A stretch of 24,227 bases of DNA from a virus (taxonomy: Duplodnaviria; Caudoviricetes): positions 1 through 24,227 of the IMG/VR virus record IMGVR_UViG_3300048881_000107; one strand, 5' to 3'. The number at the start of each line of letters is the position of its first letter. Within the stretch, counting starts at the first letter, position 1. A program made the position numbers and the translations under genes. Positions 4,516-21,188 of the stretch are shown here, in pieces. The notes under the pieces are model-generated. The model ran no database searches and was not told the origin of the DNA. It saw nothing but the letters and a program-made list of their open reading frames with translations.

Positions 4516-4891
4516 CAAGAAAGAGGTTAGTATAACAACTAAAGCTGTGGAAAGACAGATTATGCAACCTGTCATGCCTCGTGAGATAGACTTAAAAGAC
4601 CCGTATTGGTATGTAGTATCCGAGAAAAATATAGAAGAATTCTTAGCCAGAGTAGAAAAAGAACAGGGACAAGTAGTATTTTTTGCCATGTCAGTCCCTG
4701 ATTATGAATTAATGGCATATAATATGCAGGAGTTAAAACGATATATTCGTGAACTCAAAGAGGTAGTAGTCTATTATAGGACAGTTACAATGCCCCAAGA
4801 ACCTAAAAAGGAATCGAAGGCAGATGGAGAAAGTAAACGTCCAACAGTAGGAATATTCCCAAGAGATAAAAATGAAAGCAATACCGATTAA
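4442..4891 (+). CDS. Putative o-spanin lipoprotein (Rz1-like)
   Basis: Signal peptide with lipobox LSSC, overlaps the 3' end of the i-spanin in another frame, GGAGG RBS. Confidence 0.72.
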   Translation: MESKKIVAILTISTIMLSSCSLFPSKKEVSITTKAVERQIMQPVMPREIDLKDPYWYVVSEKNIEEFLARVEKEQGQVVFFAMSVPDYELMAYNMQELKRYIRELKEVVVYYRTVTMPQEPKKESKADGESKRPTVGIFPRDKNESNTD

Positions 4892-5564
4892 AAATTTAAC
4901 ACTTTTAAGAGAATTAGATAAATTATCAAGGTTTATATTAAAAAGACCTTACACCTTTAATGATGTAGGGAGGGATTTTCCTGACCTAACATTTGCTACT
5001 TTAGAAAAACATAAAGCAGACAGTGATTTTGTAGGGTTACCTAAAGAGTATAACATGGAGTCCAGAAACTATATATGGGAGAAATCTTATGTAGGAGCTA
5101 GTATGGATAATATGCAAAAGCTAAAGACATGGAAACCTTTAATAAAAGGTCCGTATCAAATGTTTAGAACTAACTTTATTAGGGGATTTAGACAATGGAT
5201 TCCCGGCGCAGAAAACCGTAATTGGTATTACGATACCATTGGTGTGCAACCCGCATACGCAGGTTTTCAAGGTTGGAGTAATTCTAAAAACAAACCAAGA
5301 CATTCTTTCCGTTTCATTTGGAATAGTGGAGACGGCTTTAGCAGAGGCGTAGCAGACGGAAGATATACTTATATCCCAGATCAAAAGAATATTGCAGGTT
5401 CTAAAAATTGGACTTGTATAACAAATACTTTTGATGAACAGGGAGAGACATGGTTTGCAGATAGGAATACAGGTCGAACCCCCAGAGTAGTTATTGATGT
5501 ATCAATACCTACAAGATACCAAGCTAGGTATAAAGAAGCACTTAATTTTATACAACACTACTAG
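4872..5564 (+). CDS. Hypothetical protein, possibly a degenerate 2OG-Fe(II) oxygenase-like fold
   Basis: GFQGWSN...FIWNSGDG...WFA...PRVV pattern recalls phage DSBH oxygenases but lacks the expected His residues. Confidence 0.45.
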   Translation: MKAIPIKNLTLLRELDKLSRFILKRPYTFNDVGRDFPDLTFATLEKHKADSDFVGLPKEYNMESRNYIWEKSYVGASMDNMQKLKTWKPLIKGPYQMFRTNFIRGFRQWIPGAENRNWYYDTIGVQPAYAGFQGWSNSKNKPRHSFRFIWNSGDGFSRGVADGRYTYIPDQKNIAGSKNWTCITNTFDEQGETWFADRNTGRTPRVVIDVSIPTRYQARYKEALNFIQHY

Positions 5565-5743
5565 TGTTAAAAACAATTAAACTACTCAAGATGAGAAGGA
5601 CTTTAATAAAAGAGTCCGATTGGTTTGATAACCACCCTGCAGTACAAGCACGATTTGAAGAATTAGAAGATTGGTGTGAAGAATTGGAGAATAGATTAAA
5701 CAAGTTGGAAAATGATATTAAAAAGCCAGAAAAACCAAGTTGA
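5564..5743 (+). CDS. Small hypothetical protein (59 aa, not in ORF track)
   Basis: GTG start overlapping the upstream stop. ...WFDNHPAVQARFEELEDWCEELENRLNKLE coiled coil. Confidence 0.6.
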   Translation: MLKTIKLLKMRRTLIKESDWFDNHPAVQARFEELEDWCEELENRLNKLENDIKKPEKPS

Positions 5744-6149
5744 AGCCTTTTTAGTGGAGAGTAATGAGGGGTTAGTTTGGCATGAGTATAATGCCGTGCC
5801 AGTTGATATTGAGGACATCTTTTGTCCTGTCAACCAAAGACAATCATTATCTGGGTATAAGTACCTATTCGATGTGATTTCGTCTGATAAGAGTATGAAA
5901 ACCCCTATCATACTTATTCGCAATACACAAACCAACTATGATATGGCTATAAGACAAGTCCGTAAGGATTTTGTAGTACCTAGAAACGAAAATAAAGATT
6001 TGTTAGCATACAATGGAAATCAGAGAATACAAATAGCTAAAGAGCTAGGTTATATTGCTATTTCTTCTATGCTAGTAGAAAGTGTCCAATGGGCATATAC
6101 AGTTCATTTAGTATTAGATGAAGGAAGAATAACTAATAATGAAGTTTAA
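5712..6149 (+). CDS. ParB/Srx-like domain protein
   Basis: MKTPIILI...YNGNQRIQIAKELG resembles the ParB-like G..R motif. Confidence 0.5.
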   Translation: MILKSQKNQVEAFLVESNEGLVWHEYNAVPVDIEDIFCPVNQRQSLSGYKYLFDVISSDKSMKTPIILIRNTQTNYDMAIRQVRKDFVVPRNENKDLLAYNGNQRIQIAKELGYIAISSMLVESVQWAYTVHLVLDEGRITNNEV

Positions 6150-6696
6150 TTATAATTTATTTAAAGAATTAAGTGATGACATTCTATATTATATGCCAGC
6201 ACAGAATGACTGGCGGTCTCCTAGAGCAGACTCTTATCAATTATATGATTTAGATACTCCTAATGGAATAGCAACATATAACACTTCTTTTCCTAAATGG
6301 AGAGAACAAAGAGTATATATTTTCGATGAAATTAGAAGATTAGTAGAAGTACCAGAACCTAAGAAAATACATAGAATAAACTTAGTAAAACATACTGATA
6401 GTTCTTTTTCTGTGCCTATACATACTGAAGGAAGAATGCACTATTACTTTATGATGAAAGCAAGTGCGGATATAGTTCTAGTAAGTAGAGGTATGAGTGA
6501 CGCTGTGAAACATATGAGCCACCCACAAAATGATTATGATATAATTCCTTATGGGCAGCCAGAGTCAGCTTATTCACACCTTCGAAGGCATAAAGCTAGA
6601 AAAGGAGACTGTTATTCAGTAGGAAATAGATGGACTTCTATATTATACCCTAAAAAAGATACACTATATTTTTATGTGGAGACAGATACAAAATGA
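6139..6696 (+). CDS. Hypothetical cupin/2OG-Fe(II) oxygenase-like protein
   Basis: VPIHTE (H-x-E) and K.GD beta-strand pattern, among oxygenase genes. Confidence 0.4.
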   Translation: MKFNYNLFKELSDDILYYMPAQNDWRSPRADSYQLYDLDTPNGIATYNTSFPKWREQRVYIFDEIRRLVEVPEPKKIHRINLVKHTDSSFSVPIHTEGRMHYYFMMKASADIVLVSRGMSDAVKHMSHPQNDYDIIPYGQPESAYSHLRRHKARKGDCYSVGNRWTSILYPKKDTLYFYVETDTK

Positions 6697-7496
6697 TACC
6701 AATTTTTATAGGAACTAGTAATTATGAGGACGCTTGGATTGAAAGAATCTTAGCATATAGTTTACTAAAGAATACAAAAGAGAAGTTAGATATCTATTGG
6801 CTTAGACCTAAATATTTTCCTAAGTGGAACAAAGATGGGTGGGGAACTCCTTTTACTAATTATAGATATGCAATTCCTCATTTAATGAACTATAAAGGTA
6901 AGGCAATCTATATGGATTGCGATCAAATAAACTTTAGAGATATTGCTGAGCTTTACGAAGAAGGCTTAGACGGCAAAATAGTAAGTATGGTATGGGACGC
7001 TTTAATGTGGAACGGATCAAAGTGGCGAGATACTCCTCATGAACGGGGTTTTTATTGTGATAGTGTTATGGTAATAGACTGTAAAAAGTTTGGAGACTTT
7101 ATAGGAAGTATAGATTCTATAAAAAATGCAAAATTTGGATTTAAAAGAGATGTATTTGATAGACTAGGGTGTCCAGATAGAAGTAAAGGAAAGGAACTGA
7201 TAAAAGAATTAAACCCTAGGTGGAATGCTTTCGATGGAAGGAACACTTCTTATATTATCAAGAGCTTGAAAGGTAGAGATAAATATTCAGAAGCTACTAA
7301 ACAACAACCTGAGTTTCCTTTAGAAGAAATATGGCATTTACATTTTACAGGTATGAGTACACAACCTTGGCACCCTAAGTATAGTCCTTGGGCGAAAGGA
7401 ATACTACCGAGAGAAGATATTTTAAAAGTTATGTGGGAACTAAACAGAGAAGTGTCTATGATAGAAAATAGAGGAGAAAAACCAAATGGCTGCTAG
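6693..7496 (+). CDS. GT-A glycosyltransferase (GT8-like phage family)
   Basis: IPIFIG, WGTPFTNYRY, GKAIYMDCDQ (DxD), SVMVIDC, WN..DG and LHFT....QPW. Confidence 0.82.
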   Translation: MIPIFIGTSNYEDAWIERILAYSLLKNTKEKLDIYWLRPKYFPKWNKDGWGTPFTNYRYAIPHLMNYKGKAIYMDCDQINFRDIAELYEEGLDGKIVSMVWDALMWNGSKWRDTPHERGFYCDSVMVIDCKKFGDFIGSIDSIKNAKFGFKRDVFDRLGCPDRSKGKELIKELNPRWNAFDGRNTSYIIKSLKGRDKYSEATKQQPEFPLEEIWHLHFTGMSTQPWHPKYSPWAKGILPREDILKVMWELNREVSMIENRGEKPNGC

Positions 7497-8001
7497 AGTA
7501 GAGACAGTCTATACAAAAGAAGAAATTGATTTATTCAAAGAAGAATTTGATGATTTATTTCCGTATAGTATAAAAAGATTAAATAACTTATTTCATATGA
7601 TAGGAAGGAGACCCGATCCTAAACATGAAATTGTTGTTGATAAGCCCGTTGCAGGATATAAAGAAGTAATAACTAATTACTACTTAGACTATATACCTGA
7701 CTCTTTTGCAAGATTTCATGCTGACCGCCCTCCTAAGATGACAGCAATAACTCTTATAGATAAATCAGATGACTTAGAAGGCGGAGAGTTTATAGTATTA
7801 AAGGCTTTTAAGAAAAAGCATTTTAATGAACGTTTTATATTTGATTCAATGGGAAGCAAACCTGCTAATGCAGGAGATTTTATTGTCCCTGAAATAATGC
7901 CTATGGAAATAGGTGAAACTTGTTTATTATGGGGCGAGCTACATGGAGTAACTGAAGTAACCAAAGGGTTTAGAAGAGTTCATGTGGCGTGGTGGGCATG
8001 A
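7486..8001 (+). CDS. 2OG-Fe(II) oxygenase
   Basis: HAD...LEGGEF...LHGVTEVTKGFRRVHVAW (HxD...H...R). Confidence 0.82.
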   Translation: MAARVETVYTKEEIDLFKEEFDDLFPYSIKRLNNLFHMIGRRPDPKHEIVVDKPVAGYKEVITNYYLDYIPDSFARFHADRPPKMTAITLIDKSDDLEGGEFIVLKAFKKKHFNERFIFDSMGSKPANAGDFIVPEIMPMEIGETCLLWGELHGVTEVTKGFRRVHVAWWA

Positions 8002-8708
8002 GTGTATTTTCTTTTGAAGATTTAATATCCCCTATCGGTAAAGAAAGGTTTTATGATGAGTATCAAGGTAAAAAACACCTTGCTATAAGATGTTCATATC
8101 CTAGATTCAAAGATCATTTTAGTTGGACAGAATTAGATAACTATTTGAACAGTATGGATCTAAATGGTTGGGATAGAATGCCGCAATGTGCGGTTGTATT
8201 ACCTGAGGGTAATAAATTAAATCCAGAAAACAACAATCAATGGACTAAAAAGACACATAAGAAAAAATTTAGTAAGCAATTGATATATGATTTATGGGAA
8301 AATGGTAATAGTATAATACTTCCATTATCAGAACATCTCAACAAAACTATGTGGAATCAATGTGAAGAATTAGAAAAAGAGTTTGGAAGTGGTTGTGCTA
8401 ATATTTATTGTAGCAATCAAAAGGACTCTAATAACTATCAAATTCATGCAGATTCTACTGATAACTTCCTTTTTCATGTAAGAGGGAAAATAAGGTGGCA
8501 TATTTATAATGAATTTGAACACCAATGTAAACCGGGAGAAGCAACAGAAAATACCTACATTGATTTAAGTGAGGGAGATTTGTTGTATCTTCCTATAAAG
8601 TTGTATCACAGAGTGACAACTTTAAGCCCAAGAATATCAATCAGTTATCATTTTACTGATGTAAAGTATAAGAGAACTAAATGGTATGACTGGATCGGAG
8701 AGATATGA
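7998..8708 (+). CDS. JmjC/cupin-4 oxygenase (YcfD/RoxA-like)
   Basis: CANIY...HADSTDNFLFHVRGKIRW...EGDLLYLP...YHRV. ATG at 7998 overlaps the upstream stop (ATGA). Confidence 0.85.
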   Translation: MSVFSFEDLISPIGKERFYDEYQGKKHLAIRCSYPRFKDHFSWTELDNYLNSMDLNGWDRMPQCAVVLPEGNKLNPENNNQWTKKTHKKKFSKQLIYDLWENGNSIILPLSEHLNKTMWNQCEELEKEFGSGCANIYCSNQKDSNNYQIHADSTDNFLFHVRGKIRWHIYNEFEHQCKPGEATENTYIDLSEGDLLYLPIKLYHRVTTLSPRISISYHFTDVKYKRTKWYDWIGEI

Positions 8709-9111: not shown

Positions 9112-9140
9112 TTGACAACTCCCGAAAATTTTGATATAAT
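9112..9140 (+). promoter_or_regulatory. sigma70 consensus promoter
   Basis: AAAATAGTTC-TTGACA-17 nt-TATAAT, with ATG 6 nt after the -10 box. Confidence 0.9.
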
Positions 9141-9146
9141 ACAAGT

Positions 9147-9284
9147 ATGAAAAATGGGAAAAAGTTAAAAACACGAAAATCGAATTGGACTGGTAGAGAA
9201 GTACCGCAGGATAAAAAATGTCTCTGTGGGTTGCTTTTAGAAAATTGCAAAGATGCTTATCTACATATGTCTAAAGGGATTTAA
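9147..9284 (+). CDS. Small Cys/His protein (45 aa, probably leaderless, not in ORF track)
   Basis: MKNGKKLKTRKSNWTGREVPQDKKCLCGLLLENCKDAYLHMSKGI with CxC...C...H potential Zn ligands. Confidence 0.65.
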   Translation: MKNGKKLKTRKSNWTGREVPQDKKCLCGLLLENCKDAYLHMSKGI

Positions 9285-9291
9285 GAGAACT

Positions 9292-9457
9292 GAGTACACT
9301 ACTGAGTGAACCATAAGCTAAGTAGAAACCCGACACCTAACCATAAGAGCAGATATACAAGCTCTGTCAAACAGCTGTATATTCAATCAGTATAGAATGT
9401 TGGGGGAAGGACATAGTGGCGGTAACTACCTGAAATAAGGATCAAGGTAGTGTACTC
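9292..9457 (+). ncRNA. Structured ncRNA, 6S RNA-like
   Basis: Perfect 11-bp closing stem GAGTACACTAC/GTAGTGTACTC, nested stems CCCGACA/TGTTGGG and ATATACA(A)GCT/AGCTGTATAT. CTGAG and ACCTGAA...GGATCAAGG motifs resemble proteobacterial 6S RNA. Confidence 0.55.
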
Positions 9458-9473: not shown

Positions 9474-9701
9474 ATGGCAACAGATACATTTAACATAAAA
9501 GTACAAGAAGATGGTGAGCATAGAGTTTACGAGCAAGACGGCAAAAGAATTGTCGTTAAGGTAGGTACTTCTGACGAAGAAGTGCAAAAACTATTTGATG
9601 ACGCTCAAGTATTTACTCATATGAAAAGACAGCTTCGACTCCGTAAAAAGAACGGAACAGGTACTATTTTACGTTCGGTCAGATTACATGGCGAACGATA
9701 A
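9474..9701 (+). CDS. Hypothetical protein
   Basis: ORF with ATG at 9474 after GAGAG. The track's start at 9450 lies inside the RNA stem. Confidence 0.65.
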   Translation: MATDTFNIKVQEDGEHRVYEQDGKRIVVKVGTSDEEVQKLFDDAQVFTHMKRQLRLRKKNGTGTILRSVRLHGER

Positions 9702-9913: not shown

Positions 9914-10288
9914 ATGGAATGGTTACCAGACAATTATAATCCACCTTTAAACTATAAACCAAGTAAAGAAATGACAGAAGATTACAAAGCAGAGAAAAAC
10001 ATCTTCAATGAAGATGCAGCACTCAAAGAATTGAGAAAATATATTGATACTACCTATGAAAAGCATTACGCTAGTGGGAACATTCAATCTACAGAGTTCA
10101 TATTCGACGCTGGACATGGCGAGAGCTTCTGCTTGGGAAATATAATTAAATACGCACAACGATATGGTAAAAAGGACGGAGAAAACGTAAGTGATGTTCT
10201 TAAACTATGTCACTACGCTATTATGCTACTCGGTAACCACATTAACTACAATTTAGATCCGTTTGTTGATGAAAAAGAATGGCAATAA
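9914..10288 (+). CDS. DUF3310 family protein (T7 gp1.7-like putative nucleotide kinase)
   Basis: HY...IQ...FCLGNIIKYAQRYGKK.G...D..K..HY motif. Confidence 0.8.
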   Translation: MEWLPDNYNPPLNYKPSKEMTEDYKAEKNIFNEDAALKELRKYIDTTYEKHYASGNIQSTEFIFDAGHGESFCLGNIIKYAQRYGKKDGENVSDVLKLCHYAIMLLGNHINYNLDPFVDEKEWQ

Positions 10289-10986
10289 GAACTAAAGATT
10301 ACGAAAATATAACAGATGCAAACATACAAAAGGTAATAGATCTTTTAAATGCAGAGAGTCCTATCACTAAAAAGGACGCCTGTGAAATTCTAAATATAAG
10401 GTATAACACGACCCGTCTTCAGAAGATTATAGACGATTATTTAGAAGTTACTTCATACAGAGATAAAAGAAGATCTCAAAATAGAGGTAAAGGAGCTACC
10501 AGAGCAGAAATAACACAAGTCATTGAAGATTACTTAGATGGACATAATATTTCTGACATTAGCGCTAGAATGTATCGTTCTCCTGCGTTCTGCAGAGCAA
10601 TAATTGAGAGAGTGGGAGTTCCACCAAAACTACCAAAATCAGAATTGTCCTGTATGAAACACAGAACTGCTATGCTTCCCCAAGAATGTGTGGAGTATAG
10701 TTTTGAAGAGGGTGAAGTCGTATGGGCTGTTAGAGAAAACAAAGTCGCAACAATAATACGAGAGTATACTTTAGAATGGCAAGATACAATGGCAGGCATA
10801 AATAATTTTGATTACGAAAAAAATTATGGTTGTCCTTACTATCGAATCCATGTTAGAGACCCAATAGATATGTCAAAGACATTATTTCCTTGGGTTAAAA
10901 ACACAGGTTACTCTAGCGGCGCTCTAGCTTATGATCTAGGAAGTTTGAGGCATTTAGAACAATATGGAGTTAATCTTAACCCTTAA
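10279..10986 (+). CDS. T5 D2-like protein
   Basis: TKKDACEILNI...RGK...VIEDYLDG...YRS...GEVVW...YDLGSLRHLEQYGV parallels T5 D2, and gene order matches. Confidence 0.8.
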   Translation: MAIRTKDYENITDANIQKVIDLLNAESPITKKDACEILNIRYNTTRLQKIIDDYLEVTSYRDKRRSQNRGKGATRAEITQVIEDYLDGHNISDISARMYRSPAFCRAIIERVGVPPKLPKSELSCMKHRTAMLPQECVEYSFEEGEVVWAVRENKVATIIREYTLEWQDTMAGINNFDYEKNYGCPYYRIHVRDPIDMSKTLFPWVKNTGYSSGALAYDLGSLRHLEQYGVNLNP

Positions 10987-11993: not shown

Positions 11994-12392
11994 ATGGGCG
12001 ATAGATTTTATCAACAACAATTAAACAGGAGAAAAAGAGTGCCTTGGGAAGAAGATAAGAAAAACCTAGCATGTCAATTATACCTAGATGAAGAACCCAC
12101 TCCAGAAACAAGTATGGAGATAGTTAAAGAAGTAGCTGAGAAGTTAAGCGAGAGCCCAAACGGAGTCAGAATGATTTTAACTAGGGCGGGTATCTATGTT
12201 AAAAAGACACCTGCTACGAAGGCAAGTAATGGATCAACTGGTGGTGGCAGAGTTTCTGTCGCAGACGCACAGCAATCATTAAAGAACGCTTTAAGTGATG
12301 CTGGCATGGAGCCAGATGAGTCAATAATTAGTAGGCTAACAGGGAAAGCAGCTAATTACTTTGCGGACATAGTAACAAACCTAAACAAATAA
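11994..12392 (+). CDS. T5 D3-like protein
   Basis: SMEIVKEVA...SPNGVRMILTRAGIYVKK...SDAG...IISRLTGKAA matches T5 D3. Alternative GTG at 12039 has an AGGAG RBS. Confidence 0.82.
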   Translation: MGDRFYQQQLNRRKRVPWEEDKKNLACQLYLDEEPTPETSMEIVKEVAEKLSESPNGVRMILTRAGIYVKKTPATKASNGSTGGGRVSVADAQQSLKNALSDAGMEPDESIISRLTGKAANYFADIVTNLNK

Positions 12393-12403
12393 CTACCCCT
12401 GTG

Positions 12404-12436
12404 CTTGGGGGATAGCAATATCCCCCAAGAATTTTT
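12404..12436 (+). terminator. Rho-independent terminator
   Basis: CTTGGGGGATA-GCAA-TATCCCCCAAG followed by AATTTTT. Confidence 0.8.
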
Positions 12437-14722: not shown

Positions 14723-15087
14723 CAGGAGTATATAACGAAACATATTTTAGCACTCGTCCCGAAGAAAGGGAACGAGAAGGTGTTTTATACGGCGTTGTAT
14801 TAGTTAATAAAAAGACCTTTGAACGAGAATGTATTAAGGTAGGTATTGCCGCTGGAAAAGACTGGCGTCATGTCGTTAAGCGTTCTTATGGTTTTAAAGG
14901 CTATGATTTAAGAATACAACGAACTTGGACAAGCACTCTTTATAGAGTGTGGGAAGTAGAGCAATCGCTTCATAAAGAGTATGAAAACGATAGGTTTCAG
15001 CCTAGTCATAAATTTGGTGGACACACAGAGTGTTTTAATATAAACAGTAAAATTTTGGAGACATTCCCGAAGAAAAATGAAAGTTAG
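14719..15087 (+). CDS. GIY-YIG/T5orf172-like nuclease-domain protein
   Basis: GVLY...IKVGI...R...E..LH...FGGHTECF. Confidence 0.65.
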   Translation: MTGVYNETYFSTRPEEREREGVLYGVVLVNKKTFERECIKVGIAAGKDWRHVVKRSYGFKGYDLRIQRTWTSTLYRVWEVEQSLHKEYENDRFQPSHKFGGHTECFNINSKILETFPKKNES

Positions 15088-15772
15088 TGTAGAAAAAACA
15101 CCTAGCCAAAAAGTATCACAGTATGCAATTAATACTGCAGCGACTGTTTCTATTACTCATTTGGCAGGACATGACTTTAGTCAAGTAGTAAATGCAGCAA
15201 TTGAAGTAAATGATCGTGCTGGTAAAGCAAAAGCAATGCCTCATATAGCTGCTAGGAATTTAGGTTCTGAAGCTGGGCTGCATATAGCACTCGATAGAGC
15301 TAAAGAAGCGGGCATTGATAAAGTTCTAGTTATTGGAGGAAATGAACAAAAAGGAAGAGCATTTCAAGGAGTAGATGAAGTATATAGTGCAATTTCTAGA
15401 TATGGTTTTGATATGTATTGTGGTGTTTATCCACAAGAAGAATCCTTCTACCATGCTTGTTCCACTAAGTATACAAAATTCTTAAAAGGTATAACTCAAC
15501 TATGTTTTAATACTAAGATGTTAAACGCATGGCACGGTAAAACAATCATTGGAGTACCAACAAACTGCTCCACTGAAGGCTTACTAAAGTATATGAAAAT
15601 ATGTGGATTACTAATAAGTTTTAAACATATAGTAGGAAATCTAGAAGGAATACAATATCTTAATATGAAGGGATTTAATACAAGTAAGTTTATTAGTCGT
15701 TTAAATCACGAACAAGTACACTTATATAACTTTGGTAGATTAGACCAAACTTTAATGGAACTAGAAGTATGA
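15077..15772 (+). CDS. Methylenetetrahydrofolate reductase-like flavoprotein
   Basis: ITHL.G, PHIAARN, VLVIGG, YPQ, ITQLCFN and HLYNFG follow MetF-family motifs. Confidence 0.68.
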   Translation: MKVSVEKTPSQKVSQYAINTAATVSITHLAGHDFSQVVNAAIEVNDRAGKAKAMPHIAARNLGSEAGLHIALDRAKEAGIDKVLVIGGNEQKGRAFQGVDEVYSAISRYGFDMYCGVYPQEESFYHACSTKYTKFLKGITQLCFNTKMLNAWHGKTIIGVPTNCSTEGLLKYMKICGLLISFKHIVGNLEGIQYLNMKGFNTSKFISRLNHEQVHLYNFGRLDQTLMELEV

Positions 15773-17130
15773 GGTATTTAGGATTTAGTGAAGGCTTTCA
15801 TGACGCTGCAGTTGCTATAGTGGATCGCAATGTTTTTAGTAATAACATTGTATTCGCAGCTCATGCTGAAAGATACACAGGCATTAAGAACGATCCAAAA
15901 CTTCCAAAAGAACTTAGAGACATGGAACATGACCAGTCTATATTCTATGAAGATATAAGGTTAAAAAACATTAGAAGGGAACGTGCGGGACAAAGACCAC
16001 AAGCTACACCTTATAGCACTTTTCATGTTAAACATCATCAATCTCATGCAGCAGCAGGATACTATACTGCTCCTTTTGATAAAGAAGATACAGTATGTGT
16101 AGTAGTAGACGCTATAGGAGAATTAACAACTACAAGCATTTGGACTCATAATGGAGTTGAATTATCTTGTAAGTGGTATGAAGAATATCCGTGGTCGTTA
16201 GGTCTATTTTATAGTGCTATAACGAAGCGTATTGGATTAAAGCCAAATGAAGATGAGTTCATCACTATGGGCATGGCAGCGTATGGGGAACCAATAGTAG
16301 ATATGTCATGGTGTTTTGCTCCTGATAGTAATTGGCATAGAGGATTCTTAATGCAAGACTTTAAAGGGCATCATATTTATGATATCGCTGCAAGTGCCCA
16401 GTATTATTTACAAGATGAACTTATAAAGCTAATGGGACGAGCCTTTCTTCACGGAAAGAAATTAATTTATGGAGGAGGGGTTGCATTAAATTGTGTTGCT
16501 AATACAGAAGTAGCGAAACAATTTGATGATATTTGGATATTTCCTAACCCAGGCGACGCAGGAAGTAGTTTAGGCGCAGTAGCAGCTCATATGAACGAAG
16601 ATATAAGCTGGCGAGACTGTTATTTAGGATATAATATAAGTAGAAAAGTAAATCCAAAAGAAGTGGTAGCCTACTTATTAAAAAATAAAATATGTGGAGT
16701 AGCAAATGGAAAAGCAGAATTTGGACCTCGAGCCTTGGGCAATAGGTCTTTACTTGGTGATTGCCGTTATAATATTAAACGGAAAGTTAATCGCATTAAA
16801 AGAAGGCAGAAGTTTCGACCCTTTGCCCCCGCAATTCTTGAGGAGTTCGCAGATGAATATTTTGACGGATACAAAAACGAATACATGCAGTTTGTCTCAC
16901 AAGCAAAACACAACTGCAAAGCAGTCACGCATGTGGATGGTAGCGCAAGAGTTCAGGTCGTAAAGAAAAATTGTAGGTCAGTTTTAAGAGCTATACTAGA
17001 AGAATGGTATGAGCAAACTAGATGTCCTATGCTATTAAATACAAGTTTAAATATTAAAGGACACCCTATGGTAAATACCGAAAGAGATGCCCTAAGATTT
17101 GAAAAAGAATATGGAGTTAAAGTATTTTGA
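15769..17130 (+). CDS. Carbamoyltransferase (NodU/CmcH/TobZ family)
   Basis: HDAA, HHQSHAA, DAIGE, GGVALNCVAN, EFGPRALGNRS, FRPFAP, THVDGSARVQ and LLNTSLN. Confidence 0.93.
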   Translation: MRYLGFSEGFHDAAVAIVDRNVFSNNIVFAAHAERYTGIKNDPKLPKELRDMEHDQSIFYEDIRLKNIRRERAGQRPQATPYSTFHVKHHQSHAAAGYYTAPFDKEDTVCVVVDAIGELTTTSIWTHNGVELSCKWYEEYPWSLGLFYSAITKRIGLKPNEDEFITMGMAAYGEPIVDMSWCFAPDSNWHRGFLMQDFKGHHIYDIAASAQYYLQDELIKLMGRAFLHGKKLIYGGGVALNCVANTEVAKQFDDIWIFPNPGDAGSSLGAVAAHMNEDISWRDCYLGYNISRKVNPKEVVAYLLKNKICGVANGKAEFGPRALGNRSLLGDCRYNIKRKVNRIKRRQKFRPFAPAILEEFADEYFDGYKNEYMQFVSQAKHNCKAVTHVDGSARVQVVKKNCRSVLRAILEEWYEQTRCPMLLNTSLNIKGHPMVNTERDALRFEKEYGVKVF

Positions 17131-17930
17131 TTTATTTTAATGGTTGCAGTTTTGTTAAAGGATTTGAAATGGACGACAATAAAATAAATTGTTTTCCTGC
17201 TTTGATTGCACAGAAATTAAATACTGGTTTTTATAATCATGCAAAAGTGGGGGGTAGTAATGAGAGGATTCAAAGAACTACACAAAACTATATACTGATG
17301 GATAAGAAACCAGAAACATTTAATAAAGGAGGTTATCTTATGGAGTTAGAACATAAGTGCAAAACTGACCTAGCTATTATAATGTGGACTGGAATGAATA
17401 GATTAGAAACAATGGAAGGAACAAGATGGAGAACTGCTAATTGGAAAACCTTTAAACTAGATGTACCTAATGACTATTTACCTACACAAGACTCAAATCT
17501 TACAGAAGAAAATGCTAAAGATCCAAAGTATTATTTATACTTAAATGGATATGTAAAAACTTTAAGTGCTAGATATAATTTAAAGAGATCAATAACTGGT
17601 ATGTTAGCGACTAAGTATTTTTTAGAAGCGCTAAACATTCCTTATTTATTCTATAGTTTTTCTTCAAAGCACTTTACTCCACTACTCCATCTCTTAGATG
17701 AAGAATATAGTGAATATACGAATATAGGTTGGTCGTCGTATGAGATGAGTAAGAAAGAAGTATTAAGAGAACTTCCTTTTTTAAAACAAGATGGATTTCT
17801 TGAGATAACAAAAAAGGCAAAACTACCACTAGGAAGAAAAGACCACCCATTAGAAGAAGCCCATATTAATATGGCAGATATTATACTAGGAGATATAAAA
17901 AGACATGGCTATGATAAAACGATTAATTAA
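17127..17930 (+). CDS. SGNH-hydrolase-like protein
   Basis: FNGCSF (GDS-like), GGSNERI and DHPLEEAH. TTG start overlaps the upstream stop. Confidence 0.65.
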   Translation: MIYFNGCSFVKGFEMDDNKINCFPALIAQKLNTGFYNHAKVGGSNERIQRTTQNYILMDKKPETFNKGGYLMELEHKCKTDLAIIMWTGMNRLETMEGTRWRTANWKTFKLDVPNDYLPTQDSNLTEENAKDPKYYLYLNGYVKTLSARYNLKRSITGMLATKYFLEALNIPYLFYSFSSKHFTPLLHLLDEEYSEYTNIGWSSYEMSKKEVLRELPFLKQDGFLEITKKAKLPLGRKDHPLEEAHINMADIILGDIKRHGYDKTIN

Positions 17931-19666: not shown

Positions 19667-21028
19667 ATGATGGCGATAGAAAGTGCATTACTGAAACAAA
19701 TCGTTGAACATGGTGATTTTGACACATGGAACGATCTTAAACAACACTATCTTCCACAAGGCGAATACCAAAAGCTCTGGAAGGTTGTGGATAAACACGT
19801 CCATAAATACCATGAGCTACCATCATTTGAGGATCTCAAGTCTGAGATTCGATCCCGTGAACTACAAGAAAAGATATATGCGATAGAATCCGTAGATACG
19901 GACGTGCCCGCGTATAAATTACTAGAGTATCTTAAAGATCAGTTTACTCAAGCAGAGATACTAGAAAGAATAGAGGAGTATATAGACGAACATATTACTA
20001 TTGCAGATGCAGGAGAAAATATTGATTACATGCAAAAAATAGTAGTAGATGTTCAAGATAGAGTAGAGACTGCAACTGATAACGAGAGTATGGAATCAGT
20101 TGAGTTATTCGACTCAGAAGAAGATTTAGCAAAATATTTACCCCTTGGACTTAACAATGATTATGACAAGGATAATAATTTCTCTCCCAAAGACTTGGTC
20201 ATTGTGGGAGGCGGAAGTGGTAAAGGTAAATCATTCACTTGTTGTAATATAGCAGATTCAGTCTATAATAGAGGAAGATCTGTATTATATTTTACAATAG
20301 AAATGGATTCTCGTAGTATTCTACAGAGATTAGCCGCAGTAGCTACAGGAGTTCCCTTGAAACGACTTCATGCAAGAAATTTAGTCGATTTTGAATGGGA
20401 AGCAGTAGCTGGTTGGTGGGCTAACCGTTTCGAAAATGGAGATGAACCTTTAGAGACCTTCAAAAAAGAAAGAGATTTTGATAAGTTCACTTATGAACTT
20501 CAAAGAAATCCTTTAAAAGAAGGAGCCCAAATTGATGTATTTTACGATCCTGGGCTCACTCTTGCTAAAATAATAGCAGTAGTGAGACAGAAGAAAGTAG
20601 AACACAAAGATTTAGGATTAGTCATAGTAGACTATCTAAACCAAGTACGCCGCCACAATGTTCCAGGTCGCTCTGGTCAATATGATTGGACAGAGCAGAT
20701 AGAAATATCTAAGGGAATGAAACAGTTGGCTCAAGAGGTAAATATCTTGTGTTTAAGTGCATTTCAAACCAATCCTAAAGGAGAGGCGAGATTTGCTAGA
20801 GGAATATATGATGCAGTAGACGCTGCATATGTAATAGAGCATTGGGGCAAAGAAGAACCAGCAATTAAACTTAATTGTGTAAAGATGAGAAACGGAGATC
20901 CATCAGGATTTACAAGTACGATGGATTGGGACTCATTAAAAATTGGACCAACTAGCACACTAGATCCCGAAGAAAGGGATAAGCTAGAAGAAGCTATGAA
21001 GAAAAATGAATCAATAGACGATATGTAG
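19667..21028 (+). CDS. DnaB-like replicative helicase (T5 D6-like)
   Basis: Walker A GGGSGKGKS, FTIEM, Walker B IVDYL, KMRN. ATG after GGGAG. Confidence 0.9.
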   Translation: MMAIESALLKQIVEHGDFDTWNDLKQHYLPQGEYQKLWKVVDKHVHKYHELPSFEDLKSEIRSRELQEKIYAIESVDTDVPAYKLLEYLKDQFTQAEILERIEEYIDEHITIADAGENIDYMQKIVVDVQDRVETATDNESMESVELFDSEEDLAKYLPLGLNNDYDKDNNFSPKDLVIVGGGSGKGKSFTCCNIADSVYNRGRSVLYFTIEMDSRSILQRLAAVATGVPLKRLHARNLVDFEWEAVAGWWANRFENGDEPLETFKKERDFDKFTYELQRNPLKEGAQIDVFYDPGLTLAKIIAVVRQKKVEHKDLGLVIVDYLNQVRRHNVPGRSGQYDWTEQIEISKGMKQLAQEVNILCLSAFQTNPKGEARFARGIYDAVDAAYVIEHWGKEEPAIKLNCVKMRNGDPSGFTSTMDWDSLKIGPTSTLDPEERDKLEEAMKKNESIDDM

Positions 21029-21102
21029 GGGCTGTAGCTCAATGGGAGAGCATCTGCCTTGCACGTAGAAGGTTGAGAGTTCGAATCTCTCCAGCTCCAC
21101 CA
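21028..21102 (+). tRNA. tRNA-Ala(TGC)
   Basis: GGGGCTG/CAGCTCC acceptor with G3:U70, anticodon TGC, TTCGAAT loop, encoded CCA. Confidence 0.95.
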
Positions 21103-21112
21103 AACTAATAAA

Positions 21113-21188
21113 GGCTCATTAGTTAAGTGGTATATAACACCGCCCTGTCACGGCGGAGTCAGGAGTTCGATTCTCCTATGAGCCGCCA
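21113..21188 (+). tRNA. tRNA-Asp(GTC)
   Basis: GGCTCAT/ATGAGCC acceptor, CCGCC-CT GTC AC-GGCGG anticodon arm, G discriminator, encoded CCA. Confidence 0.95.

Follow-up and report, generated by a model that had tools for sequence, protein, structure and literature searches.

The DNA analysed here (24,227 nt, referred to throughout as the window) is a 24-kb fragment of a T5-like phage, 23% complete. Its gene content is T5-like, with D2-like and D5-like genes, a split NAD ligase, a helicase, a primase and a lysis block. T5 relies on the host polymerase, and in the complete relative G001 no polymerase or sigma family was detected among 82 ORFs (82 of 103 ORFs of at least 110 aa). Near-identical DNA is present in marine and hydrothermal-vent metagenomes, at least half of the words being found in 14 of the 24 runs listed (three possible source runs).

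At one slot of the marine T5-like phages the features follow a fixed order: a sigma70 promoter, an optional small Cys-rich ORF, an RNA element and a small basic gene (Table 1). The promoter matches the consensus at 12 of 12 positions and has an extended −10 TG in addition. A comparable promoter lies upstream of 33 of the 34 copies of the RNA described below, the 34th being cut by the end of its contig. The 17-mer ending in TTGACA occurs seven times in the window, against 0.26 copies expected. These copies look like a class of near-consensus sigma70 promoters used throughout the phage; several have an ATG within 6–7 nt and are likely to give leaderless mRNAs.

Table 1 Features at and around the RNA locus, in window coordinates
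Feature	Position	Strand	Remarks
Promoter 17-mer copies	2518, 9101, 11931, 13090, 18041, 22664; 923	+ (first six); − (923)	
Sigma70-type phage promoter	9101..9140	+	A-rich upstream motif, TTGACA 9112–9117, 17 nt, TG, TATAAT 9135–9140
Small 45-aa ORF	9147..9284	+	CxC..C..H pattern; likely leaderless; optional part of unit
Structured RNA element, including both closing-stem strands	9292..9457	+	Fold, 34 members, covariation
P1 closing stem, 5′ strand	9292..9303	+	Pairs with 9446–9457
5′ island AGUGAAC and covarying base 9312	9305..9312	+	Pairs with 9421–9427: AG/CU, GAA/UA internal loop, C-G, N-X
P2c helix, 5′ strand	9317..9320	+	Pairs with 9414–9417
P3 helix, 5′ strand	9329..9335	+	Pairs with 9398–9404; borders large loop
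Large loop, 5′ strand	9336..9352	+	Family median 15 nt; predicted non-template (−10-like) strand in inverted model
Apical hairpin, 30 nt	9353..9382	+	Divergent window class
Large loop, 3′ strand	9383..9397	+	Family median 15 nt; predicted template strand in inverted model
3′ island X-GUAnCU	9421..9427	+	Conserved partner of 5′ island
P5 side hairpin at three-way junction	9428..9448	+	Short form 9429–9431/9438–9440, probability 0.87–0.89
75-aa protein, basic C-terminal half	9474..9701	+	Candidate RNA partner; next gene in 30 of 34 members
T5 D2-like gene	10279..10986	+	At most about 31% identity to cultured Demerecviridae D2; T5-like replication block 3′ (D5-like, split NAD ligase, helicase, primase)

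Among the 33 members with a visible promoter, the Cys-rich ORF lies between promoter and RNA in 16 and is absent from 17. The window copy of this ORF has no Pfam or PHROG match. The first ORF behind the promoter encodes a small Cys-rich peptide of two unrelated-looking forms (one at window 9147–9284, the other at L040:5420–5533 and in L079), with the pattern CxC..C..H in RNA carriers and CxxC..C..C in RNA-less relatives. The ORF upstream of the RNA also has a strain variant with seven changes. The basic protein downstream of the RNA is 75–82 aa long across the family and has only 12 close homologs. In the window it gave no match in Pfam, PHROG, Atlas or fold searches, and its AlphaFold model is poor (pLDDT 62).

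The RNA element sits between these two ORFs. The earlier note on this DNA described the segment as intergenic, and this holds apart from an alternative GTG start at 9450, the sole ORF overlap, which covers the last 8 bases of the element. A run of at least four U follows the closing stem in 28 of 33 members; the window has no such run. The element is likely transcribed from the strong upstream promoter. Contigs from RNA libraries span it in runs X15, X16 and X17, span most of it in X18, and do not cover its middle in X20; these are assembled contigs, from which ends, strand and level are not readable and whose depth cannot rank the parts.

The plus strand of the window element folds as a bulged rod of −45.4 kcal/mol (z −3.1, 0 of 200 shuffles), against z −2.3 for the reverse strand (3 of 200 shuffles). 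The earlier note had picked out a perfect 11-bp closing stem, and this inverted repeat (9292–9302 with 9447–9457) is indeed present, all 11 pairs having a predicted probability of at least 0.97. The rod and its named helices, namely P2c, P3 and the apical hairpin, were likewise recovered in the plus-strand fold. From base to tip, the order is P1, a three-way junction with P5, the AG/CU pairs, a GAA/UA loop, a C-G pair and the covarying pair, P2c, P3, an A-rich loop and the apex. The two strands of the large loop together are 53% A. The loop is predicted to be partly open (family median unpaired 0.57 and 0.72 for the two strands), and in the window its 5′ strand is partly paired in the fold of that sequence (mean unpaired 0.62). 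Across the family the median length is 160 nt and the folding energy is modest, with a median z of −1.5 and 10 of 33 members below −2.

Family members were sought at loci reached through the two flanking proteins, then by motif scans of viral and metagenome contigs, and then by profile search, giving 34 distinct copies (cores). The first viral pattern scan returned 88 hits, mostly chance matches in coding sequence, which were removed by eye and with the profile. A looser scan, covering 26 of 64 parts with a pattern that would miss the window itself, gave 120 hits, of which two were known members. A second looser viral scan gave 55 hits, with 14 known members and no new ones, L391 being coding sequence. 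A covariance model built from the 34 members recovers all of them at 37–124 bits, as it must by construction, and found no motif-less member in 95 sources. Bacterial homologs were considered and rejected: a scan of GTDB with one main-class pattern gave four hits that resemble chance matches, the strongest at 19.4 bits (E 0.58). Against cultured phages, blastn with the element returned short chance matches only.

The members form 5 clusters at 70% identity and 10 at 80%. The window copy is the most divergent, with 70% identity to L001 and at most 41% to the other members. These two make up a divergent class without the main-class apical motif, the main class comprising the remaining 32. Of the 55 alleles of the upstream gene, 11 come with the RNA, mostly in one clade, and 44 are without it; 39 of these 44 have at least 1 kb of downstream sequence. 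The presence of the RNA on the tree needs 3 changes, against 10.2 when shuffled. It is single-copy in the one complete carrier and absent from four of five long records.

The features of the rod have been further analysed across the family. P1 has a longest stacked run of 6–14 bp (median 9, 33 members). In the conserved islands, the A-U, G-C and C-G pairs near the closing stem are each canonical in 34 of 34 members, and the covarying pair at 9312 is also canonical in 34 of 34, with five pair types. The search pattern imposed motif invariance on the members found by pattern and left it free for the 11 distinct ones found by way of flanking proteins, all of which have the 5′ island. Further along the rod, the two central pairs of P2c are canonical in 33 of 34 members each, with compensatory changes, and the flanking pairs in 17–28 of 34. 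The main-class apex is a module of 28–29 nt in 32 of 32 members, consisting of a 4-bp helix, a GAAC loop and a 3-bp hairpin, and the 4-bp helix is canonical at each pair in all 32 (one-base bulge allowed); the window and L001 are excluded from these counts because neither has the main-class motif. The window copy has a differently paired hairpin of 30 nt, so the size of the apex seems to be kept. In contigs of runs X12 and X17, this hairpin has one extra G at window 9358.

The side hairpin P5 is about 10–60 nt long in relatives, mostly with CC..GG base pairs. It resembles a swappable cassette: a near-identical side-hairpin insert occurs in distant classes (the side stem of L001, L022, L058 and L199; L036 and L191), and L191 carries a nested extension of it. 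Two motif assignments were dropped. A loop E or sarcin-ricin motif was considered for the islands, and was abandoned since the covarying pair implies that the G in GUA pairs with a C. A pseudoknot at the main-class apex was rejected because the 5′ AGC varies without compensation and the nested 4-bp helix is canonical throughout. An H-type pseudoknot is possible at the apex of the window class.

The earlier note had proposed covariation among related phages as a check on the fold, and this bears it out. In the model alignment, which was fitted, 90.3% of cells pair, compared with 77.0% when shuffled and 24–41% when slid. Under a tree-aware null, with a tree built from the same RNA, co-changes at the eight variable pairs number 17.9, where 4.0 are expected (0 of 20,000 simulations); taken singly, four of the pairs have P < 0.03 and four do not. 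Wobble pairs are G-U in 43 cases and A-C in 1, which marks out the plus-strand RNA as the selected molecule. The clear conclusion is that the element is under selection for RNA structure. It is a conserved structured non-coding sequence of uncultured marine T5-like phages and apparently represents an uncatalogued RNA family: in searches with all Rfam models, no family matched the element in the window or at 10 homolog loci, and 6S gave no hit at E ≤ 10.

The earlier note went on to interpret the element as a phage 6S RNA. The two RNAs are of the same size class, and both are bulged rods with one internal loop of about 15 × 15 nt and a conserved island some 20–24 nt from it. The rod of about 160–200 nt with interrupted helices that is typical of 6S is thus seen here (median 160 nt, with covariation), but the phage rod also has a three-way junction with a variable side stem, is phage-borne and is patchy in its distribution. 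The 6S model RF00013 matched 0 of 1 and 0 of 4 records, in a search whose positive control matched 7 of 14 genomes. Likeness to E. coli ssrS, the sole 6S compared directly, is at chance level for the window (P = 0.84 with permissive and 0.47 with strict scoring), and none of the 34 members reaches P ≤ 0.05 under either scoring. The two strings said to recall 6S are not kept in relatives.

The architecture differs as well. An open bubble had been placed beside the closing stem, which is where the invariant canonical pairs and the covarying pair lie; the large loop is distal. The 5′ junction strand at this place has a median of 4 nt and shrinks to 0 nt in four of the L004 group. The supposed pRNA-triggered release hairpin corresponds to P5, which in most members forms alongside the closing stem (the automatic helix choice behind the junction and side-stem measurements was wrong in 2 of 33). 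With the bubble paired and P5 compatible with P1, the register of the earlier note is unlikely. A closing arm, a bubble and a long apical (−35) arm are not found in this order: the loop is present, but the apical arm is 28–30 nt in the phage element and 73 nt in E. coli 6S (limits set in this analysis), and at 28–29 nt in 32 of 32 main-class members it is too short for a 6S −35 arm. In the normal 6S orientation, a −10-like element on the 3′ bubble strand scores 2.28 and 2.47 of 6, in the range of controls, with U at −7 in 5 of 32 and 4 of 32; the enrichment lies on the 5′ strand. The premise that weak −35 promoters are the 6S-sensitive ones is reported to have ‘many exceptions’ (PMC2848244), and the same source reports extended −10 promoters as a sensitive class; the phage promoter (9112–9140) is of this kind. 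What stands of the earlier interpretation is a structured phage non-coding RNA element behind a consensus sigma70 promoter; the 6S homology, the bubble and the release hairpin are not supported. The element is not a 6S family member, any promoter mimicry in it would run in the opposite direction to that of 6S, and it is in this opposite orientation only that the decoy idea would survive.

We hypothesise that the element acts as an inverted, 6S-like mimic of an open promoter that binds host sigma70 RNA polymerase. We hold this to be possible rather than probable, with a ribonucleoprotein formed with the neighbouring basic protein as a close rival. The RNA would be cut from a longer early transcript at the closing stem. 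With positions numbered as in promoters, the bulged arm between P3 and the junction would play the part of upstream DNA, the AGUGAAC/GUAnCU island lying near the −35 position; the last P3 pair (mostly U-A) and the following A would play −12 and −11; the 15 × 15 nt loop would stand for the promoter bubble; and the apical module of 28–30 nt would take the place of the duplex downstream, capped by its loop. This would reverse the layout of 6S, in which the ends are on the downstream side and the loop on the upstream side. Holoenzyme bound in this way would not be available to weaker promoters, and the consensus promoters of the phage would go on competing for it.

Several observations are consistent with the inverted arrangement. 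The main-class loop strands have medians of 15 + 15 nt (32 members), compared with 16 + 13 nt for the bubble of E. coli 6S (limits drawn in this analysis). The loop entry often reads as a −10 fork about 22 nt from the conserved island, the spacing from island to −12 being 21–24 nt in 32 of 34 members. The A-anchored hexamer at this entry matches TATAAT at 3.56 of 6 positions (controls 2.29 and 2.58); it has U at −12 in 27 of 34 members (controls 25–27%), at −7 in 18 of 34 (controls 15–20%), and at −7 or −6 in 31 of 34 (controls 29–35%). The lack of a polymerase or sigma family in G001 and the seven copies of the sigma70 promoter motif in the window also favour a decoy of the host enzyme. 6S RNA trimmed to the bubble and short arms is reported to keep holoenzyme binding with approximately 10-fold lower affinity, and a circularly permuted 6S with a capped downstream helix to bind approximately 10-fold more weakly and to make pRNA poorly (PMC8876501).

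Other observations count against the inverted decoy. The model is post hoc and rests on 5–10 lineages. Under the same automatic fork rule the window copy and L001 score 1 of 6, a poor fit to a −10 element. RNA loops are commonly closed by a U-A pair and continue with A. Binding of E. coli 6S tolerates mutation of bases 131, 135 and 136 (PMC8876501), and the −10 likeness is on both these grounds a weak marker. The conserved ‘−35’ island of E. coli 6S includes residues 110–113, 17–20 nt before residue 130 (PMC3988568), and the phage island lies 3–6 nt further out. The model leaves the strong sequence conservation of the apical module unexplained, and transcription of the phage itself would face competition from a decoy. 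The partly open loops, the lack of an Rfam match to 6S or another RNAP-binding RNA and the absence of the RNA from most alleles argue in the same direction. A fuller version of the proposal is that of a naturally inverted, independently evolved phage 6S, whose loop-sealed downstream duplex would trap the sigma70 holoenzyme of the host and let it escape only slowly by pRNA synthesis, the basic protein inherited with the RNA perhaps adjusting the trap; we regard this as possible, if slightly less so than the simpler form.

The RNA could instead be the partner or scaffold of the downstream basic protein, in a phage ribonucleoprotein in which the protein would read the conserved GAA/UA loops. This is a tentative reading, and one compatible with the inverted decoy. 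In the protein-anchored set, all distinct loci with the RNA (11 of 11) have a full-length protein encoded behind it, and 16 of the 17 contigs with a full-length protein hold the RNA, the 17th ending 734 nt upstream. RNA-less relatives give only weak, shorter protein matches of about 40–60 aa. A clade nested among the RNA carriers is without both at 4 of 4 loci with more than 2 kb of downstream DNA, an apparent joint loss, and the window and L001 diverge in both the RNA apex and the middle of the protein. However, all of these co-occurrences are confounded by descent, since RNA presence needs just 3 changes on the tree and the co-occurrence therefore amounts to 1–3 events. Moreover, a 62-aa version with a basic C-terminus occurs without the RNA, other genes can intervene between RNA and protein gene, and the poor model of the protein revealed no RNA-binding fold.

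Control in cis, a primer function and true 6S homology are weaker than the inverted decoy and the ribonucleoprotein. A cis-acting leader (an attenuator, or a processing or translation switch) controlling the downstream genes toward D2 is unlikely. It would account for the constant position of the element between promoter and downstream genes on the same strand and for the common U-run, and deleting the 5′ closing strand in silico lowers predicted ribosome-site access by more than 0.2 in 9 of 33 members and raises it in 2, but the median shift in access is small (from 0.57 to 0.51), the next gene is exchangeable and the window is without a U-run. Nor does the stem, with its 140-nt insert, look like that of an intrinsic terminator. 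That the RNA is structured to serve a replication origin as primer or R-loop is improbable: the position some 0.8 kb upstream of D2, where in T5 the origin-binding-protein gene is found, the strong promoter and the single copy in the complete relative would suit it, but the absence from 44 of 55 alleles and from four of five long records would not, and no iteron-like repeats were found. Least credible is a true, diverged 6S homolog in the register of the earlier note, which would put the bubble next to the closing stem and make the long arm the −35 arm. The length and rod shape would fit, the 3′ hairpin of the window resembles the E. coli release hairpin when aligned by eye, and free B. subtilis 6S-1 RNA is reported to have a small 3′ bubble hairpin (PMC8876501), but RF00013 gave no match, similarity is at chance level, a covarying pair lies inside the supposed bubble and the junction strand can be 0 nt. 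The probability left over from these readings is reserved for other functions. The idea that the RNA replaces a glycosylase was rejected, as PF03013 matches elsewhere in two of four RNA-bearing records and is missing from the RNA-less G006; the 198-aa gene in RNA-less slots is thus at most a putative glycosylase. No reverse transcriptase, which would point to a retron msr-msd, was found among 37 window ORFs or the 82 ORFs of G001.

Among known RNAs, the topology proposed for the phage element is that of the engineered 6S82cp, a circularly permuted, loop-capped B. subtilis 6S-1 with a bubble and a loop-closed downstream helix (PMC8876501). Unlike the phage RNA it is artificial, 82 nt long and without a −35 arm, and its binding has been demonstrated, that of the phage RNA being a prediction. 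Ms1 and CoRP provide a precedent for RNAP-binding RNAs that escape 6S models, but they are bacterial and larger, CoRP being 516 nt (PMC11077062). The stable RNAs of T5 (RNAI, RNAIII, RNAIV, RNA1-3, RNA2H and RNAX in AY543070) come from the same phage group, and RNA2H, at 172 nt, also has a closing stem; they differ in lying in the tRNA region, and RNA2H folds as a multi-arm junction. The covariance model of the phage RNA scores at most 12 bits on T5 AY543070 (E 1.1) and matched none of four cultured Demerecviridae genomes.

No paper on a phage 6S-like RNA was found in literature searches, and the catalogue of candidate RNAs from IMG/VR (PMC10690425) gave no match in the part of its supplement searched; part of the phage RNA may be an unnamed candidate there. 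The result is a 34-member family, supported by covariation and new to Rfam, with an alignment ready for structure and binding work. If the inverted mimic is correct, phages would use RNA, and not only proteins, to take over the host polymerase, promoter-mimic RNAs would exist in a topology invisible to 6S models, and, as far as the literature searches reach, no earlier case of a viral RNA acting as a decoy for bacterial RNA polymerase would be known. A ribonucleoprotein, if that is the answer, would be a new phage RNA-protein pair.

It is worth adding some observations on the wider neighbourhood. IscU-like Fe-S scaffold genes, assigned by sequence recognition, occur in relatives at L240:134–508 and, in L056, L063 and L079, about 1.9 kb past the TM gene, and hint at a gammaproteobacterial host (cf. 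PMC5332604). Acyl-carrier-protein-like ORFs, identified by eye, fill the slot just after the TM gene in the RNA-less L027, L031, L033, L076, L081 and L099. In the window, the intergenic stretch after the D3-like gene (12353–12434) contains a strong terminator-like hairpin at 12404–12429 and a weak match to sroB (E 2.8). Two blocks of host-like modification genes (4872–8708 and 15077–17930), holding glycosyltransferase, JmjC, carbamoyltransferase, sulfotransferase-like and DUF6071 genes, lie among the core genes, and tRNA-Ala(UGC) and tRNA-Asp(GUC) are found at 21028–21188, between the helicase and the primase.
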